A program made the position numbers and the translations under genes. From the NCBI GenBank assembly GCA_963663225.1, contig OY760142.1, positions 768,001 through 832,000 of the forward strand: a stretch of 64,000 bases of DNA, given 5' to 3'. Every line of letters starts with the position of its first letter. Position 1 is the first letter of the stretch. The notes beneath the pieces are model-generated. The model saw nothing but the letters and a program-made list of their open reading frames with translations, was not told the origin of the DNA and made no database searches. Shown here one piece after another: positions 42,889-50,512 of the stretch. The DNA is from Nitrospirota bacterium (GTDB lineage: Bacteria; Nitrospirota; UBA9217).

Positions 42889-44376
42889 TTAAAAAATTTT
42901 TACATCTCCTGCGCTCTGCTGTTCTATTGCATATACACCCTGCATTGCTTCCTGTATCTGCCGGACGGCGGGAAACTGTTTGCTCATCTCGAAATAAATC
43001 TCGATTGCCTCTGAAAATTTTTTGCTCCGGTAATACAGTCCGGCCAGATCCGCAAGCATCAGCGGGTCGTTCGACTCAATCTTGTTCTTGTTGCTTTTAT
43101 CCCTGCCCATTTCCATGGAGAACAAAGCCTTTCCCCGGTTTTTCTTCGCAAGAGCGTATCTGCCGAGCCCGAAGTGCAGGATGGAAAACTTTTTGCCCTG
43201 ACCGGCCGCGGCGATGGATTCCGCGCGCTTCGAAACTGCACCGCATTCTGCTTTTGCCCGCGCACAGGCAAACAGTATCTCTCCCAGAAGGTCCGGGTCT
43301 GCCGGCTGCTTCTGCGAAAGACCGGTCCATACCTTCAATGCTCCGGCCTGATTGCCTTGCAGATATTCATGCGCCGCCTGCTGTGCCCGTATCCGGTCCT
43401 TATAATGCTGCGACATGCGCGAGGTAGCGATAAAAGATGCTGCAACCTCAGCCGACTGTTCTTCGCTCCCTGCAAAAGAATACGCGGCGGCAAGATAGTA
43501 TTCAGCCGCGTCTTTTACCGCTCCGTTGGCGGCGGCTTTTTCGAGCGAAGCTATGCTTGCCTGGCCATAGAGAACCGACATGGCATCGAGAAGTCCGGGA
43601 TCGTAAAAAAAGAGGACTTTCAATTTTCCGAGCACCTCTTTGTGAGAAGGCTCCTTTCCATCAACGCGTCTGAGCAGTGCAAGCCCCTTGTCGATCAGTC
43701 CTGCTTCGTTGTAAACAGACAGACAGTTCTTCACCATCCGGACCAGCGCCGGTTTCCCGGTTTTCTTTACGTCTGCAAGGCTGCCGTCGCACAAGGCAAC
43801 GGGGTCTTTCTCTGCAAAGTTAATTCTGCTGTACGCTGCGGCAAGCTCGGACCGTACTTCCGGGGAGGCGGAATCTATGCCGTTCCAGATGCGCTCCGCT
43901 TCCTGCCCGTTGTCGTTCAGGTAATGGCAGAGGCCCAGATTCACTTCAGCGATCGAACGATGCAACTGACTGATTTTTTTGTCGGCAATGAATCGTTCCA
44001 GAAAGGACACAGCATCAGCAGGTTTTTCCGACTCGATAAGCAGCTGCCCTCTATACAGGTCCGCGAAGCGGCTTCTGGCCGACCCTTTTGACGCGGACAG
44101 TTTTTTGAGATAATCCTGCGTCGCGGCAAGCGATTCTTCGTAGAACGCCCGGTACAGTTCGGCGTTTTTCAGGTAGATCATGCCGAGGGTCAGGTTCGCC
44201 GCCCCCTGCCGGGACGGATCAAGTGAAGTAATCTCTGTTCGAAGATTCAAAGCTGCGTCTTCATAATGCCGCTGTTCATAAAGCTTCATCGCACGCGCAA
44301 CTGCGTCGTCGGCGGCGGCAGGTACGGCTGACGGAATGCTCAGAAAGAGTATGATGGAAAAAAGAATTCGCTTCAT
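42889..44376 (-). CDS. Secreted all-helical TPR-like protein
   Basis: Signal peptide ending PAA; multiple TPR-like segments (NLTLGMIY, NLGLCHY, LADLAGLYY). Confidence 0.8.
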   Translation of the reverse strand: MKRILFSIILFLSIPSAVPAAADDAVARAMKLYEQRHYEDAALNLRTEITSLDPSRQGAANLTLGMIYLKNAELYRAFYEESLAATQDYLKKLSASKGSARSRFADLYRGQLLIESEKPADAVSFLERFIADKKISQLHRSIAEVNLGLCHYLNDNGQEAERIWNGIDSASPEVRSELAAAYSRINFAEKDPVALCDGSLADVKKTGKPALVRMVKNCLSVYNEAGLIDKGLALLRRVDGKEPSHKEVLGKLKVLFFYDPGLLDAMSVLYGQASIASLEKAAANGAVKDAAEYYLAAAYSFAGSEEQSAEVAASFIATSRMSQHYKDRIRAQQAAHEYLQGNQAGALKVWTGLSQKQPADPDLLGEILFACARAKAECGAVSKRAESIAAAGQGKKFSILHFGLGRYALAKKNRGKALFSMEMGRDKSNKNKIESNDPLMLADLAGLYYRSKKFSEAIEIYFEMSKQFPAVRQIQEAMQGVYAIEQQSAGDVKIF

Positions 44377-44412: not shown

Positions 44413-45729
44413 TTATTGCTTCAGTTTCATGAGAAAAATCTGGTCCCATTGATTGACCTGGGCGCGATATGCTATCACGCCGTCTGAAGAGCAGGTGATA
44501 TCATGGTTCATTTTGGTGCCCGTTTTTACCAGACGGCTCGTCTTCTCTTTGATGTTCACGATATAGATGGGATTGAATCCGACCCGGTCGTTTTTTACGT
44601 ATACAATTTGCGCGCTGTCAGGCATCCACGCGGGCCCGCGTTCCACGTCAGGAATAATGTCCTGGGCGACCACTTTTGCGGCAAGCCCGTCTCCTGCAGG
44701 AGAATCTGACCCGTCGGCAGCAATAACCATCAGGGACCATATCTTGGGGTCTCCGGCAGGATTGACATTTGAGTAAAACGCTATCTTCTTCCCGTCAGGC
44801 GACCACATCGGCCGCAAGTCGTCGTAGGTCCACGTGGTGAGCGCTTTCAGCGTCTCAACAGGTTTGGTCACGTCGCCGATCAGATAGATGTCATGGTTTT
44901 CATTGCTGCCGTGCATCACAGCGATTCTTTTTCCGTCCGGGGACCATTGCGGGTAGAGATACGGTTTTCCTCCCCTGGTCAGCCGTGTCAGCCCGCGGGT
45001 TGCGGTATCCAGAAGATACACATCGCCCTTGCCGGTTCTGCCTGATACGAAAACGATTGAATCAGCAACCGGCGACCAGTGCGCATGGCCGTTTTTCTCC
45101 TTGTGATTGGTAAGCCGGGTTGTTGTCGCCGTCGGCATGCTGCTGATGTCCTTCAAATAAAGATCGTAATTCCCCTCGCCGCCGTTGCTCATAAAAACAA
45201 CACGGTTTCCCTGCGGAGACCACGAAAGACCTGCGTTATAACTCACTTCCTCATAGACACCTGGGAAAAAGAACTTTTCTTCCCTGCGGTTTTCGGATAG
45301 CTGGAAATAAAGGGTCTGAACTATTGATCCGTCGGGACGGGCGATAATAATCTCTTTTTTATCGCCGCTGCTCCGTTCAAACGCAATCAGGGTTCCCTGC
45401 CGGGACCATACCGGATTTGAATCATTTCTCCCTGTTTCAATCTGAACAAGCGGTTTCACAAAAAGCGGTTCAATAATTGCGTTCGTGCGTTCTTCCGTGT
45501 TATCCCCTGTCGCTGTAGGGCGGGACTCAACAGCAGAATCCGGGCCCAACCGCGCCGCATCTTCGACGTCCTGGTCTTCCGCCTCCTGCTCAGTGAATTC
45601 GGTTTCCGATGGAGCTGCCGGCAGGTCTCCGCCGGCGACCGCCCGTAAGCCTCCCAGAAGAAACATCACCGCAAACAAAAGACAATGGTATCGGGTTGCT
45701 GTTTTCACCAAAGCGTCTCCCGCAATCAA
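44413..45729 (-). CDS. TolB-like PD40/WD40 beta-propeller protein
   Basis: Seven blade motifs WSRQG, WSPQG, WSPVA, WSPDG twice, WMPDS and CSSDG; signal peptide and acidic linker. Confidence 0.88.
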   Translation of the reverse strand: MIAGDALVKTATRYHCLLFAVMFLLGGLRAVAGGDLPAAPSETEFTEQEAEDQDVEDAARLGPDSAVESRPTATGDNTEERTNAIIEPLFVKPLVQIETGRNDSNPVWSRQGTLIAFERSSGDKKEIIIARPDGSIVQTLYFQLSENRREEKFFFPGVYEEVSYNAGLSWSPQGNRVVFMSNGGEGNYDLYLKDISSMPTATTTRLTNHKEKNGHAHWSPVADSIVFVSGRTGKGDVYLLDTATRGLTRLTRGGKPYLYPQWSPDGKRIAVMHGSNENHDIYLIGDVTKPVETLKALTTWTYDDLRPMWSPDGKKIAFYSNVNPAGDPKIWSLMVIAADGSDSPAGDGLAAKVVAQDIIPDVERGPAWMPDSAQIVYVKNDRVGFNPIYIVNIKEKTSRLVKTGTKMNHDITCSSDGVIAYRAQVNQWDQIFLMKLKQ

Positions 45730-48296
45730 AGATTTTTAATCTGCTCCCAATATTTCTGCGCCGTATCCCGGCTTTGCTCGAACGTACTGTTTCCCTCCAG
45801 CTTTTTCGGGAAAAAGTCAAAGTACTCCCGCCAGGCAAGGTTAGCACTGTTCAGCAACGCCGGTTTCCGGGTCATCAGATAGAGTTTGTGGTATGACAGC
45901 GCAAGATAGTAATAGGTATCATGCACGGCCTCGTCATACTGGATATTCGGAAAAAATCTTGTGTTCTGTTTTGCCGTCTGAAGATGCTGGATCGCTTTTC
46001 CGAAGGCCTGTGCCGCTGCATCCCTATTGGTTTGAACGAGCCCGCTTCCCTTTTCATAGTACGCGTGTCCCAGGTTCGTGTAAGTCACCGCATACTGTTT
46101 ATACAGAAGTTCCCGGTTCTCGGGCAGTGAAAGCACATTTTCAAATTCACGGATCGCGCCATCGTAATCACCTTTCTGATCGAGGTAAATCTGTGCCAGG
46201 CGGCTGTGGGCCTGGGAATAATCCGGATGCCCTTTTTCCGTGCTCTGGTAAGCACGGACCGCCCCCTCCACATCACCCTTTTGTTCCGCCCGCTCGCCGA
46301 TCTTCAGGTAATCTTTTTGCAAAACAATCCGCCGGTCACCTGTCCTGTTTTCTTCTTTTTGGGCAAACTCGATGATCTCTTCCCAATCACGGTAATCACC
46401 ACCGGCAGAAATTCTGACCGTATGGAATCCGAGTCCCACAAGTTTTCCTGCGCTGAGAGGCGTGGTACCGATTTTTTCTCCGTCAATGTATACGTCCGCG
46501 GAAGACGGCTGGGACTCTACTTTGAACAGCGAATTGTTCACCTGTAGAACATATTCTTTCAAATCCTTGTTCTTTTCTATTTTGACCTGGCCCTTGATCT
46601 GCTGATAACCATGCCGGTACAGAATAATATCGTATTTTTTCCCCACGCGGATCGGGATCTCTGCTCTGCCGTCAGCACCCGTGGAGCCAACCCATTCCTC
46701 ATTCAGGTAAACGTTCACACCACCCAGAGGGGCCACATCCGGAGAAACACCGCCTTTGGCAGACAGAACAAAGTAATTCTGCGCCGCTTCCTGCTCTTCC
46801 CGGTAAATGCGCCTGACCACCCGGTCTCCAATGGCAATTTTTTCATCTTTTCTCAGGTCCTCAACTTCAACCCAGGCCCCCGAGTCTTCCGCCTTCTTTA
46901 CTCTGATCTTTCCGATATCACGATAGCTCGATATCTTGCCGCTTTCATCAAACCGGGGGGTCATGAGCGAAAATTCCATCCCCCTGCTGATCCGGTAGCC
47001 CTGTTTTCCAAGATTGATGCGATAGCGGTCTTCTTCCTTCGACAGCACAGTCCCTTCAAAGGGAAACCGCTCCATGATATTCGTTGCGATCTCTTTCGCC
47101 GCGCCATTGATATCACCGGCACCTGATGCCCTGTTCAGCTGACTCAGAATCAATTTTCCCCCGGATGTATAAAACTTCGTTTCTATGAGAAACCCTTTGT
47201 CATCCTTTGCCACACTGCCCATGATAATCATGTCAACGGTTCTGCGAAGCGGAGTGTCGCGCCATCCCTTTGTAGTCGCTTTTTCGATCCCAAGTTTTGC
47301 CTGTTTCATTTCAGTCTGCAGTGTTTTCGTCGGCACTTCTCTAAAACAGGCGTTTTTGAATATCTGATTTGCCACGGAATGCTCCGTCTGCACAAGAATA
47401 TCTTTCATATCCGCTCCGGGAGTATTGCCTACAAAGCGGTAGATCCCGGCCCTGATCGGCTTGGGCTTCGTCGGGTAGAAATAGCGCGGGAGAGCCACCT
47501 CGCCTTCGAGCGTAATGCTCCCCTTCCAAGTGGCGGGAATATATCCGGGCGCGGACATCTGAATCTGGGCTTTCTTGCCGGGTTCTCCATTATATGTATA
47601 TACAAGGACTCCCTTGGAATCCGTACTGCCTGCGGACTTGTTGTCAATGCTGACGGCAACGCCGGGGATGCCGCTCGACAGCCCATACTCCTCCATCAGC
47701 GCGCTGATGGTAACCTGAACGCGCCTGGCAAGTGCCACTTCAAGCCTCTGGCCCGGCTCTGTTCTGCTTGTTTTGCGCCAGGTGGAATATCCCGACTTCG
47801 AAACCGTGATGTCCAATCCTGCTTTCGGCATTTCCTTATACTCGTAGATGAACTCACCTTTTGCGTCCGTTTTTCCCTGTTCCTTTCCTGATGCCGCAAC
47901 GGCTGCATCCTTCACGGGCGCGCCTTTTTCCGTAACAACGATCGTAATGTATCGCGTGGCTTCGAGATCTGCGTCAAAGGAATATTTGTCTACGGTCCCT
48001 TCTTTGGGCAGTTTCATAAGAAACGTGGTTTTCCAGGGCTTGACCCGGTATCCGGGCATTTCCTTGACCACGGCTACTTCTACTTCGGCCCCCGGTTTCT
48101 TTTTTATTATTTTGGAAAAATTACCGTTCGAATCGGCAAGACCTTCTTCCTTGCCGTCGACAGTTATTCTTGCTTGCGCCGCAGGCTGGCCGTCCAGACG
48201 GGCCTTTACCTGCAGATCGAGCTTTTCCCCGGCGCAGCCGAACAGCAGAACTGACGCCATAATAATTAGGCTTGAGCAAATAATGCGTTTTGCCAT
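45726..48296 (-). CDS. Large multidomain lipoprotein (beta-sandwich repeats, CsgG/FlgT-like core, PEGA, TPR)
   Basis: Lipobox LFGC, repeated GxT/AD..G beta modules, PEGA motif VESQPSSADVYIDGEKIGTTPL, C-terminal TPRs. Confidence 0.82.
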   Translation of the reverse strand: MAKRIICSSLIIMASVLLFGCAGEKLDLQVKARLDGQPAAQARITVDGKEEGLADSNGNFSKIIKKKPGAEVEVAVVKEMPGYRVKPWKTTFLMKLPKEGTVDKYSFDADLEATRYITIVVTEKGAPVKDAAVAASGKEQGKTDAKGEFIYEYKEMPKAGLDITVSKSGYSTWRKTSRTEPGQRLEVALARRVQVTISALMEEYGLSSGIPGVAVSIDNKSAGSTDSKGVLVYTYNGEPGKKAQIQMSAPGYIPATWKGSITLEGEVALPRYFYPTKPKPIRAGIYRFVGNTPGADMKDILVQTEHSVANQIFKNACFREVPTKTLQTEMKQAKLGIEKATTKGWRDTPLRRTVDMIIMGSVAKDDKGFLIETKFYTSGGKLILSQLNRASGAGDINGAAKEIATNIMERFPFEGTVLSKEEDRYRINLGKQGYRISRGMEFSLMTPRFDESGKISSYRDIGKIRVKKAEDSGAWVEVEDLRKDEKIAIGDRVVRRIYREEQEAAQNYFVLSAKGGVSPDVAPLGGVNVYLNEEWVGSTGADGRAEIPIRVGKKYDIILYRHGYQQIKGQVKIEKNKDLKEYVLQVNNSLFKVESQPSSADVYIDGEKIGTTPLSAGKLVGLGFHTVRISAGGDYRDWEEIIEFAQKEENRTGDRRIVLQKDYLKIGERAEQKGDVEGAVRAYQSTEKGHPDYSQAHSRLAQIYLDQKGDYDGAIREFENVLSLPENRELLYKQYAVTYTNLGHAYYEKGSGLVQTNRDAAAQAFGKAIQHLQTAKQNTRFFPNIQYDEAVHDTYYYLALSYHKLYLMTRKPALLNSANLAWREYFDFFPKKLEGNSTFEQSRDTAQKYWEQIKNL

Positions 48297-48409: not shown

Positions 48410-48859
48410 TTACATCGTTGGGGGCTGGATGTTTACCTCGCCGGGATTTACAATTTTGTCTTCATCGGATTTTGAACCTTCTATGCTTTTCCGTTTCCCT
48501 TCAGCGATTTTCTTTATTTTAAATTCCACCTTCTTGCCGCCGAATCTTCCTACTTCCACGGACCGTGTTTCAGTCATATAGCCGATCCTGCTCGCTTCCA
48601 CCTTGTATACTCCCGGAATAATAAAGTCCTTCAGAGACTCAAACTTGCCTTCTGCGTCCACGACAACGGCCTGCGATGCCTTTTCGAGCGTGGTCGTGGT
48701 GTTGATCATGTTCACAACAGATCCCTGCGGACTTTCCTTGGCAGGAGGAATAGGTTGCAGGTTTGCGTCCACAAGCTCGACCGTTCCATATATTTTCGGT
48801 GCACAGGCACCCAGCGTGATCCCCAGAACCGCCAGTAAAATATACTTTGTGCATTTCAT
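48410..48859 (-). CDS. Lipoprotein with carboxypeptidase-regulatory-like beta-sandwich
   Basis: AGGAGG RBS, lipobox LGAC, DAEGKF....PGVYKVEASRIGY motif. Confidence 0.85.
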   Translation of the reverse strand: MKCTKYILLAVLGITLGACAPKIYGTVELVDANLQPIPPAKESPQGSVVNMINTTTTLEKASQAVVVDAEGKFESLKDFIIPGVYKVEASRIGYMTETRSVEVGRFGGKKVEFKIKKIAEGKRKSIEGSKSDEDKIVNPGEVNIQPPTM

Positions 48860-48936
48860 ATTCCCGCCTCCTCCTGACCCGTGCGTAAGATTCATTCTTT
48901 GATTCTAATACCGAAGCAACTTGCTGCCGCAATCGC

Positions 48937-48979
48937 AAAAAAAAAACCGCCAAAGAGAACAGATTATGTTCTTTGGCGG
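48937..48979 (-). terminator. Riboswitch expression-platform terminator
   Basis: Minus strand CCGCCAAAG...CUUUGGCGG followed by U10; its 5' arm overlaps the 3' strand of aptamer P1. Confidence 0.88.
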
Positions 48980-49106
48980 CTCGACTAGCATATAAAACAA
49001 TTACTGCGACTCTGCTGATGCTTTTGGTGTACGACAAGTCGCCGGTGTTTTAGTTAGCTTCGTGGCTCTGCGCCCTCCGGTTTCCCGGGGTTTGCTCTGA
49101 GCAAAG
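48971..49106 (-). ncRNA. GEMM-I / c-di-GMP-I family riboswitch aptamer, A20 variant
   Basis: Minus strand CUUUGCUCAG-A-GCAAA-CCCCGG-GAAA-CCGGAGG-GCGCAGAGCC..GCUAA..long stem..UAUGCUAGUCGAGCCGCCAAAG; P1 CUUUG/CAAAG, GAAA tetraloop and CUAA/AUG receptor. Confidence 0.88.
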
Positions 49107-49148: not shown

Positions 49149-49177
49149 AATCTAACATGTCATCTGTCCCTTGTCAA
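49149..49177 (-). promoter_or_regulatory. sigma70 promoter for the riboswitch leader
   Basis: Minus strand TTGACA-17 nt-TAGATT with extended TG, about 40 nt before the aptamer. Confidence 0.75.
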
Positions 49178-49444
49178 GAAAATGGATAAACATTATTTTT
49201 GTTAGCCAGCCCGGTGATGCACTTTTAATTCCAAAACGTTTTCAACTGTGTGACCGGGCTCACAAAACAGACATTTTTTCTCCTCCGAAAGCAATAATTT
49301 TTTATGAGGAACCTTTTTCACCTTTGTTCCGCATCAGGCAGCTGGACCATAATAAATGTTTTTGACACAAATACAGAATCTGATAGAATAAAGCACTTTT
49401 GTTTTCCGGTGCCGCAAGGAAACAAAACACGCCACAAAAAACTT

Positions 49445-50512
49445 ATGAACCCTGTAAATCAGCTGAAAATTTCACTGGTCGTTCTCCTCGCTCTCGTCTC
49501 TCTCGGCACAGCAGGATATATGTTTATTGAGTCGTGGTATTTCCTTGACGCCCTTTACATGACGGTCATCACGCTCGCCACCGTAGGGTTTAAAGAAGTC
49601 CATGATCTGAGTGATGCGGGAAAAATCTTCACCATATTGCTGATCGTTTTCGGAGTGTCCGTCATCGGCTTCGCCTTAAGCAAGCTCGCCCAGATCATGT
49701 TTGAAGGACAGCTCCAGCGTTTTATCGGGAGGAAAAAATTGGAAAAATCCATAGACAGTCTGACCGGTCATTACATCGTTTGCGGCTACGGAAGAATCGG
49801 ATCCCTTATTTGTAAAGAGTTCGCCGCCAAACCTATTCCTTTCGTCGTTGTGGAAAACGATCCTATCGTCCTTGATAAGCTTGAAACGGACTCCCATCTT
49901 TTTCTCCGCGGCGATGCTACGGAAGATGAAGTCCTTCTCCAGGCTGGAATTAAACGTGCAAAAGGCCTGGTATCGGTGGTCAACTCAGATACGGAAAACG
50001 TTTACATTACCCTTACCGCACGCGGGCTCAATCCGGATCTTTATATTCTTGCGCGTTCCAGTGAAACAGGCTCGGACATAAAACTCAAGCGGGCGGGAGC
50101 GAGCAAAGTCATTTCACCGTATCACATCGGCGGCAACCGCATGGCCCAGGCCATTCTGAGACCAAACGTAGTTGACTTCATCGAGATAGCCACCGGCCGG
50201 GACCATATTGATCTGCAGATGGAGGAAATACTGATACCACAGCAGTCCCCGTTCGCGGGCCAAAACCTGCTGCAGGCCGGTCTCCGCAAAGAAACCGGCG
50301 TTATCATCGTCGGCATAAAAAAAGCAACCGGGAAAATGGTTTTTAATCCCGACTCAACTACCCTCCTTGAACCCGGTGATACGCTCATCGTTCTCGGTCC
50401 GCCGGCATCAATAGCAAAGCTCGAAAACCTTTTTTCCAGCAATGCTTCAAAAGAAAAGGTCCCGGCGATCAAGAAACAGCGTCAAAAAATTGAGAAACGA
50501 AAGCCCGTGTAA
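49445..50512 (+). CDS. Potassium channel protein (pore plus TrkA-N and TrkA-C)
   Basis: TLATVGF filter, VCGYGRIG, GDAT and FNP...GDTLIVLG motifs; TTGACA-16-TAGAAT promoter upstream. Confidence 0.93.
   Translation: MNPVNQLKISLVVLLALVSLGTAGYMFIESWYFLDALYMTVITLATVGFKEVHDLSDAGKIFTILLIVFGVSVIGFALSKLAQIMFEGQLQRFIGRKKLEKSIDSLTGHYIVCGYGRIGSLICKEFAAKPIPFVVVENDPIVLDKLETDSHLFLRGDATEDEVLLQAGIKRAKGLVSVVNSDTENVYITLTARGLNPDLYILARSSETGSDIKLKRAGASKVISPYHIGGNRMAQAILRPNVVDFIEIATGRDHIDLQMEEILIPQQSPFAGQNLLQAGLRKETGVIIVGIKKATGKMVFNPDSTTLLEPGDTLIVLGPPASIAKLENLFSSNASKEKVPAIKKQRQKIEKRKPV

Follow-up and report, generated by a model that had tools for sequence, protein, structure and literature searches.

A window of 64,000 nucleotides (nt) from contig OY760142.1, the genome of a Nitrospirota bacterium, contains on its minus strand a riboswitch of the GEMM-I fold with adenine in place of guanine at position 20 of the ligand pocket (Vibrio cholerae Vc2 numbering). 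In the sampled genomes, its A20 subtype is distinct and strongly conserved, and is characteristic of a single Nitrospirota family. Comparison of its copies well supports the view that it is a terminator-based transcriptional ON switch, which would turn on a cell-envelope lipoprotein operon. Sequence alone cannot say whether its ligand is cGAMP (3',3'-cyclic GMP-AMP) or cyclic di-GMP (c-di-GMP). We consider it slightly more probable than not that cGAMP activates the riboswitch in the cell, whether as its selective ligand or alongside c-di-GMP.

The aptamer was identified in an Rfam scan of the full 64 kb, with gathering thresholds applied. The sole match across the window was RF01051 (c-di-GMP-I) at 48972-49106 (-), with 48.5 bits against a gathering cutoff of 35 bits (E = 2e-06; model positions 1 to 87 of 87). 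The same match was recovered in a search of the whole genome, and c-di-GMP-I itself was the best member of Rfam clan CL00126 for this aptamer. A first-pass annotation, made from the letters of the window, had called a GEMM-I riboswitch here, and the covariance model bore it out. By this match the element is a genuine riboswitch of a known class, with the GEMM-I fold. Read on the minus strand from position 49106, it consists of CUUUG-CUCAGA-GCAAA, a GAAA-capped hairpin, GGCGCAGAG, a long P3, GCCGCCAAAG, and a hairpin with ten U residues that ends at 48937.

The A at 49096 was aligned to RF01051 model position 11, where the consensus is G. We take model position 11 to be G20 in Vc2 numbering, an assumption that agrees with the description in PMC6140456. 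On the 3' side, GCCGCC-AAAG is present, and the C at 48976 is the first C of the 3' "CC" of the model. Thus, as had been annotated, A occupies the G20 position and the C92 equivalent is kept. The A47 and C92 equivalents are both present and invariant, and in the RF01051 alignment all ligand-contact equivalents are canonical except position 20. Judged by these alignment columns, the canonical c-di-GMP pocket is altered at one of its three bases and membership in the fold is unaffected. This base (A47/A41) is described as intercalating between the ligand bases (PMC5888326, PMC6274999). Directly after the A47 equivalent, at 49068, the window has G where the RF01051 consensus is A; this G (in GCAGAG, at the A48-equivalent position) was found in 28 of 30 aligned copies. 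In the same alignment the GAAA loop of P2 is invariant, and CUAA and UAUG or UACG flank P3. We presume the CUAA/UAUG motif to be a tetraloop receptor; the GNRA tetraloop of P2 would dock on the receptor-like loop of P3. The window copy carries a C-A mismatch in P2.

Covariation was evaluated in an alignment of 30 distinct subtype sequences (copies from related loci and other copies from relatives), using the structure from Rfam, to which the basal stem of the P3 extension was added (29 pairs, 851 cells). Standard pairs occupied 92.4% of the cells, compared with 30 to 47.5% when the 3' partners were slid by one to three columns. Changes on both sides were seen in 15 of the 29 pairs, and none of 500 shuffles reached any of the observed measures. 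The fold is therefore real and under selection. P1, P2, and P3 were all supported by covariation; the variable pair of P1 was U-A in 26 copies (CUUUG/CAAAG), C-G in 3 (CUCUG/CAGAG), and U-G in 1. Using Rfam, we found the same element about 650 to 800 nt upstream of the gene for an 856-amino-acid (aa) lipoprotein in 12 of the 17 related loci; the ten of these with an alignment listed had an identical 5' core and insertions of 24 to 58 nt. A regular expression detected the subtype core in 21 of 78 loci related by the 856-aa gene. Many of the coreless loci lacked upstream DNA or came from Rokubacteria, Burkholderiales, or Desulfobacterales, in which the operon has no such leader.

The identity of position 20 was surveyed in 401 sampled genomes of the phylum with the subtype frame CTYTGNTCAG-A-GCAAA ... 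GRCGCARAG. With A at position 20, the frame occurred at 104 places in 65 genomes. With C, G, or T at that position, it occurred in none of the 401 genomes, and reversed-pattern controls gave zero matches. When the window genome was excluded, the subtype was found in 47 of 63 genomes of the window's family, 7 of 11 of a second family (f8), and 0 of 76 of a third (f9). G20 GEMM-I riboswitches were also common in the window's family: 31 loci from 31 genomes, including that of the window, comprised 18 with G and 13 with A. In the richest genome (G015), 13 loci were retrieved, two of which gave no parse; the 12 copies read from them comprised 10 with G and 2 with A. In a Geobacteraceae metagenome-assembled genome (MAG) that carries the operon, the classical GEMM-Ib type and the G type were each present in 6 copies and the CUCAGA subtype in 2; in the family of this MAG, the subtype was detected in 3 of 81 genomes, always with A. 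As A20 and G20 types coexist in the same family and genus, the lineage maintains two separate kinds of pocket, perhaps for two signals or for two thresholds. A full-text literature search (12-nt core; Hypr GGDEF with Nitrospirota) yielded no printed description of the subtype, and the core matches listed were unrelated primers.

An abundant G20 type in relatives G006, G007, G015, and G016 (L103, L105, L106, L108, and L197 to L208) has the pair after position 20 flipped (G-CCAAAC ... GACGGAAAG) and resembles a G20 version of A-CUAAAC, the classical form in Geobacter. Genome G015 had up to 27 GEMM-I matches, some of them in tandem.

The genome that hosts the window riboswitch is a single contig of 3.26 Mb. 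The nearest relatives of the 856-aa protein were in a MAG labeled "uncultured Nitrospiraceae" (98% identity), followed by many "Nitrospirota bacterium" records (60 to 78%); the host is a member of Nitrospirota, not Geobacter. A search of the genome for other A20 aptamers, which the first-pass annotation had proposed, found one more (L001:1501-1590; G000:C1:190726-190814; 62.4 bits). Its core is that of the same A20 subtype, its P1 is CUCUG/CAGAG, its P3 is short, and it overlaps a terminator of its own; it lies upstream of a gene for a small Fn3-like lipoprotein and one for a large secreted protein. No G20-type GEMM-I copy was found in the host genome by the whole-genome Rfam search or by a loose regular expression for the GEMM-I core. 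The latter gave 10 matches, namely, the L001 copy and nine apparently spurious ones, none of them G20-like; the window copy itself fails the strict hairpin filter of this expression at its C-A mismatch in P2.

The direction of regulation is suggested by the overlap of aptamer and terminator. All of the P1 3' strand, along with the C92 equivalent, lies within the 5' arm of the terminator, CCGCCAAAG. Closure of the aptamer and formation of the terminator are therefore mutually exclusive, and ligand binding should prevent termination. For each of the 30 distinct copies, we took the final nine bases of the aptamer (CCGCCAAAG or CCGCCAGAG) and looked for their complement within 70 nt downstream. 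It was present 4 to 33 nt downstream in all 30, exactly in 22, with at most one mismatch in 28, and with at most two in 30; in every copy at least 6 T residues followed in the next 10 bases. The terminator of the window was overlooked by a consensus terminator scanner, given its 2-nt bulge, and was revealed by folding. Both the sharing of the P1 3' strand with the arm of a U10 terminator and the ON-switch wiring had been proposed in the first-pass annotation, and both held in the folds and across the copies. In the cGAMP riboswitch of pilM, which follows the same logic, the terminator is reported to sequester C75 together with the 3' strand of P1, and the RNA no longer binds ligand after the terminator becomes able to form (PMC9262584).

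The mechanism we propose is as follows. RNA polymerase would start at a sigma-70-like promoter about 43 nt upstream of the aptamer and transcribe the 136-nt aptamer. Without ligand, CCGCCAAAG (which runs from the end of P3 through the base equivalent to C92 and the 3' strand of P1) would pair with CUUUGGCGG downstream, and the resulting hairpin of -20 kcal/mol with its U10 tract would stop transcription 77 nt before the first gene of the operon. With ligand in the three-way junction, the C at 48976 would pair with the ligand guanine and the A at 49096 would read the second base. P1 (CUUUG/CAAAG) would then be locked, the terminator could not nucleate, and the envelope operon would be transcribed. 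The A20/C92 pocket type leads us to expect that the aptamer accepts cGAMP, and its role in the cell would most likely be that of a cGAMP-responsive sensor, selective or bispecific with c-di-GMP. The cGAMP may be supplied by a Hypr-like GAF-GGDEF cyclase conserved in the family; we infer both the ligand and this source.

In GEMM-Ib riboswitches, G20 is replaced by an A that pairs with the adenine of cGAMP, and the type is recognized by A20 (A14 of Gs1761) with C92 (C75) retained (PMC6140456). This combination is present in the window, and the A is invariant in the 104 copies. Because the A20 pocket binds both ligands in some known aptamers, it makes cGAMP binding likely while leaving room for c-di-GMP.

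A candidate source of cGAMP was found outside the window. Among the 17 GGDEF-family matches in the host genome, 12 were full-length with the canonical Asp after GHxxG, and the sole full-length domain with Ser was that of a 389-aa GAF-GGDEF protein (L141:1501-2667; G000:C1:1947338-1948504). Its best solved relative was 6d9m_A, an endolysin-fused GacA-type GGDEF domain (115 bits; next match, 101), which is presumably the GacA construct of PMC6456294 or a re-deposit of it. The two proteins align without gaps at LTGLxN-Y-R, GHLxG-S, and RYGG-EF. The equivalent of Ser348 is present (GHLEGS aligned to GHLVGS), as is that of Tyr304 (LTGLLN-Y-R aligned to LTGLFN-Y-R, 44 residues before the Ser). The motif spacings in 6d9m_A, 44 and 26 residues, fit Tyr304, Ser348, and Asp374 of GacA, in which Tyr304 is the non-arginine cross-dimer residue (PMC6456294). 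At the third position, the candidate has Glu (RYGGEEF) instead of the Asp374 of GGDE[F/Y]. Hence, the first-pass suggestion of a Hypr-type GGDEF enzyme agreed with the genome at Ser348 and Tyr304, the enzyme being atypical in its GGDEF motif. Orthologs with 61 to 99% identity were detected in 23 of 24 other family genomes sampled, and the genome without one was 63% complete. Among family genomes that encode the protein (the host's own included), 23 of 24 combined Tyr, Ser, and GGEEF; the remaining one was unmatched by the regular expression. The usual RxxD I-site of the protein is displaced by a 2-residue insertion.

Three further GGDEF-like proteins were seen in the host genome (L094, L095, and L097; G000:C1:2398238-2399638, 1696355-1697347, and 2082178-2083575, respectively). 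Two are HAMP-linked and one is receiver-like. They have GGDDF or DGDDF, with Ser, Asp, or Asn at the base-reading position, share a conserved C-terminal VxDxRR tail, and gave partial Pfam GGDEF matches.

Several observations weigh against a cGAMP response. Both c-di-GMP and cGAMP are bound by the G20A mutant of Vc2, and bispecificity is seen in many natural A20 aptamers (PMC6140456). J1/2 is CUCAGA here versus AUAAUA in the classical GEMM-Ib copies of the Geobacteraceae MAG, and of the equivalents of A9, A11, and A12 of Gs1761, which contact the ligand (PMC6274999), only that of A12 is kept. The 12 canonical GGDEF domains indicate that c-di-GMP is surely present in the host. The GGEEF motif of the candidate synthase departs from the Hypr form: the D374E variant of GacA (i.e., Ser348 with GGEEF) was inactive, and natural Ser/Thr348 enzymes are described exclusively with GGDE[F/Y] (PMC6456294). 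Co-occurrence of riboswitch and enzyme hardly discriminates, since Ser-type GGDEFs are too common and the genomes are too related. In other families of the phylum, Ser-type GGDEFs were found in 13 of 17 genomes, comprising 5 of 5 with the subtype and 8 of 12 without it. These proteins (16 places: L171 to L179 and L182 to L188; genomes G025 to G041) have NDxxGHxxGS with GGDEF or GGDEY and Y, L, D, F, H, M, or T in place of Arg after LTxLxN, and they occur even in genomes with no GEMM-I match. Finally, no SMODS or DncV-like domain was found in the host genome; the search with PF21654 had no positive control and is uninformative.

Most of these points also favor the strongest alternative, in which the aptamer and the ON switch are the same, the physiological ligand is c-di-GMP only, and the invariant A sets an affinity or threshold different from, and probably weaker than, that of G20. 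The Ser/GGEEF GAF-GGDEF protein would then be inactive, as this combination is in GacA, or a plain diguanylate cyclase. A20 aptamers bind c-di-GMP through a stably protonated adenine (PMC6140456). The host has no G20 riboswitch, so its two A20 copies would be the sole riboswitch outlet for c-di-GMP, and no CD-NTase was found in the genome. However, A was present in 104 of 104 copies and no G variant was seen, although G would give tighter c-di-GMP binding and G20 is common in the same genomes. The retention of Ser, Tyr, and an intact GGEEF in nearly all of the family genomes, down to 61% identity, likewise argues for a working, specialized enzyme. We regard a c-di-GMP-only response as a serious possibility but a somewhat improbable one. 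A purine dinucleotide ligand other than these two (e.g., linear pApG or pGpA arising by breakdown, or another mixed cyclic dinucleotide), or a decayed relic with constitutive termination, is very improbable: the G at the A48-equivalent position and the distinct J1/2 make the surroundings of the pocket unlike both the Rfam consensus and classical GEMM-Ib, and Rfam clan CL00126 presumably includes variant GEMM-I classes with unknown ligands, but c-di-GMP-I is the best clan member, the ligand-contact equivalents are canonical apart from position 20, and purifying selection with covariation (30 copies, 65 genomes) excludes a relic.

The nearest known systems include the GEMM-Ib riboswitches of Geobacter (e.g., that of pilM in G. 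metallireducens and Gs1761 upstream of pgcA). These have the same three-helix fold with A20 (A14) and C92 (C75) kept, likewise regulate exported or envelope proteins, and coexist with G20 copies in the same genomes. They also have the same ON wiring, as their terminators take the C92 equivalent and the P1 3' strand (PMC9262584, PMC6140456, PMC6274999). The window riboswitch differs from them in J1/2, in the pair after position 20 (G-C, not C-G), in the base that follows J2/3 (G, not A), in its 51-nt variable P3 extension, in its Nitrospirota host, and in a candidate synthase with GGEEF rather than GGDEF. To us, J1/2 of the subtype looks closer to that of Vc2 than to that of Gs1761. Natural Vc2, which belongs to the same Rfam family, has G20, is selective for c-di-GMP, and differs in its expression platform and P3 length, whereas its G20A mutant shares the A20/C92 pocket and the binding of both ligands (PMC6140456). 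The G20 GEMM-I riboswitches of the window's own Nitrospirota family share the fold, the Rfam family, and the genomes, and some have a U-tailed terminator-like sequence. In contrast, their G is preceded by AAA, many have the flipped C-G pair (G-CCAAAC ... GACGG), and they lack the long P3 extension and precede other genes. What is specific here, in the genomes sampled, is the invariance of A20 over 104 copies, the coexistence of A20 and G20 in the same genomes, and a family-wide cyclase with Ser348, Tyr304, and GGEEF.

To our knowledge, experimental demonstrations of cGAMP-selective riboswitches are confined to Geobacter and its close relatives. The distribution of cGAMP signaling has been called an open question (PMC8835794, 10.1101/600031). 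The locus provides a clean test case outside the Geobacter lineage, with an invariant-A20 subtype, G20 siblings in the same genomes as internal controls, and a single family-wide candidate synthase with an active-site motif at odds with the published rule. As a tentative and, taken whole, unlikely proposal, this uncultured Nitrospirota family may use 3',3'-cGAMP as a core second messenger. Its own riboswitch subtype (CUCAGA, invariant A20, and a variable long P3) would gate envelope and surface operons and be fed by a GAF-regulated Hypr-type cyclase with Ser348, Tyr304, and GGEEF. If the ligand is cGAMP, Nitrospirota of soils, groundwater, and reactors would control their cell surface by cGAMP, and cGAMP riboswitch signaling would extend well beyond the Geobacter lineage. 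If the Ser348/GGEEF cyclase is active, the "Goldilocks" rule for GGDEF substrate recognition would have a natural exception. If the ligand is c-di-GMP, the locus would be an ordinary GEMM-I riboswitch with a tuned pocket.

Table 1. Features of the riboswitch leader and the genes downstream of it (window coordinates)
Feature	Position	Strand	Basis or remark
Sigma-70-like promoter: TTGACA, 17-nt spacer, TG-extended TAGATT	49149..49177	-	Consensus match at 10 of 12 positions; putative transcription start
GEMM-I (c-di-GMP-I) aptamer, 136 nt, A20/C92 pocket type	48971..49106	-	RF01051 match and covariation in 30 distinct copies
P1 5' strand CUUUG	49102..49106	-	Partner is CAAAG, 48971-48975; helix 100% paired in 30 copies
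J1/2 CUCAGA; last A (49096) is the G20 equivalent, the ligand-reading base	49096..49101	-	RF01051 alignment, model position 11
P2 hairpin with GAAA tetraloop	49075..49090	-	RF01051 alignment; 4 of 6 pairs changed on both sides
A47 equivalent in J2/3	49069..49069	-	RF01051 alignment; column invariant among aligned subtype copies
P3 with tetraloop-receptor-like CUAA/UAUG internal loop	48978..49067	-	RF01051 alignment; helix 4 is 91.5% paired, with two-sided changes at 4 pairs
P3 distal extension, 60 nt; basal 7-bp stem UAAAACA/UGUUUUA, inner stem GCGACU/AGUCGC	48993..49052	-	RF01051 alignment and folds
C92 equivalent, Watson-Crick partner of ligand G	48976..48976	-	RF01051 alignment; column invariant
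P1 3' strand CAAAG, doubling as part of terminator 5' arm	48971..48975	-	Covariation and terminator fold
Intrinsic terminator stem-loop CCGCCAAAGAACA / UGUUCUCUUUGGCGG with 2-nt bulge	48947..48979	-	-19.9 kcal/mol, z = -4.7; arrangement kept in 30 of 30 copies
Terminator U10 tract	48937..48946	-	Sequence
First regulated gene: small lipoprotein (MKCTKY..LGAC lipobox), weak CarboxypepD_reg match	48410..48859	-	AGGAGGAGG 6 nt before ATG; putative start codon
856-aa lipoprotein with CarboxypepD_reg, PEGA, and TPR domains	45726..48296	-	Homologs in 78 loci
438-aa TolB-like PD40 beta-propeller protein	44413..45729	-	TIGR02800, 133 bits, below cutoff
495-aa secreted TPR protein, with which the unit probably ends	42889..44376	-	Next is an ABC-transporter substrate-binding protein gene

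The same-strand, tight spacing of the genes downstream of the terminator points to an operon of four genes, and its products would make the riboswitch a regulator that turns on a cell-envelope lipoprotein operon. A search of the operon proteins against NCBIfam gave no name above cutoff. The PEGA/TPR lipoprotein gene is kept at 47 to 65% identity far outside Nitrospirota (Rokubacteria, Burkholderiales, Desulfobacterales, and others), where no riboswitch core precedes it. The co-occurrence of operon and leader in the single Geobacteraceae MAG suggests their joint transfer.

The distal part of P3 is the most variable part of the aptamer. The insertion is 51 nt relative to the RF01051 model, and the part beyond the receptor-like loop is 60 nt, compared with 12 to 14 nt in the short paralog; the lengthening of P3 noted in the first-pass annotation was thus confirmed, at a size below the 60 to 70 nt it had given. 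Its two extra stems (AAAACA/UGUUUU and GCGACU/AGUCGC) both appeared in minimum-free-energy (MFE) folds. Covariation is confined to the basal stem of 7 bp, where 6 pairs show two-sided changes, and the inner part is not conserved. Across copies the length of the distal part varies between 12 and 71 nt, with an interior that cannot be aligned, and its fold in the window barely beats shuffles (z = -1.1). We therefore rejected a conserved extra domain and, on the alignment, read the insertion as a hypervariable helix extension with no specific function.

The 5' end had also been annotated as able to pair with itself in an alternative unbound fold. The complementarity was confirmed, as a hairpin of 6 bp with a 3-nt loop in the MFE fold (the 1-nt loop originally drawn is impossible). 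The role as an alternative fold found no support: the 30 copies showed no covariation for the hairpin, and natural variants break it, 4 of 180 cells being unpaired by substitutions that P1 compensates. It was therefore rejected as a conserved OFF-state element; some help to the OFF state is conceivable, although nothing in the data speaks for it.

Two other features lie beside or across the leader. A divergent potassium-channel-like gene (Ion_trans_2, TrkA-N, and TrkA-C) occupies 49304-50512 (+) and has its own strong promoter-like site at 49362-49389. In the mechanical list of open reading frames, one of 132 aa at 48639-49037 overlaps the leader.

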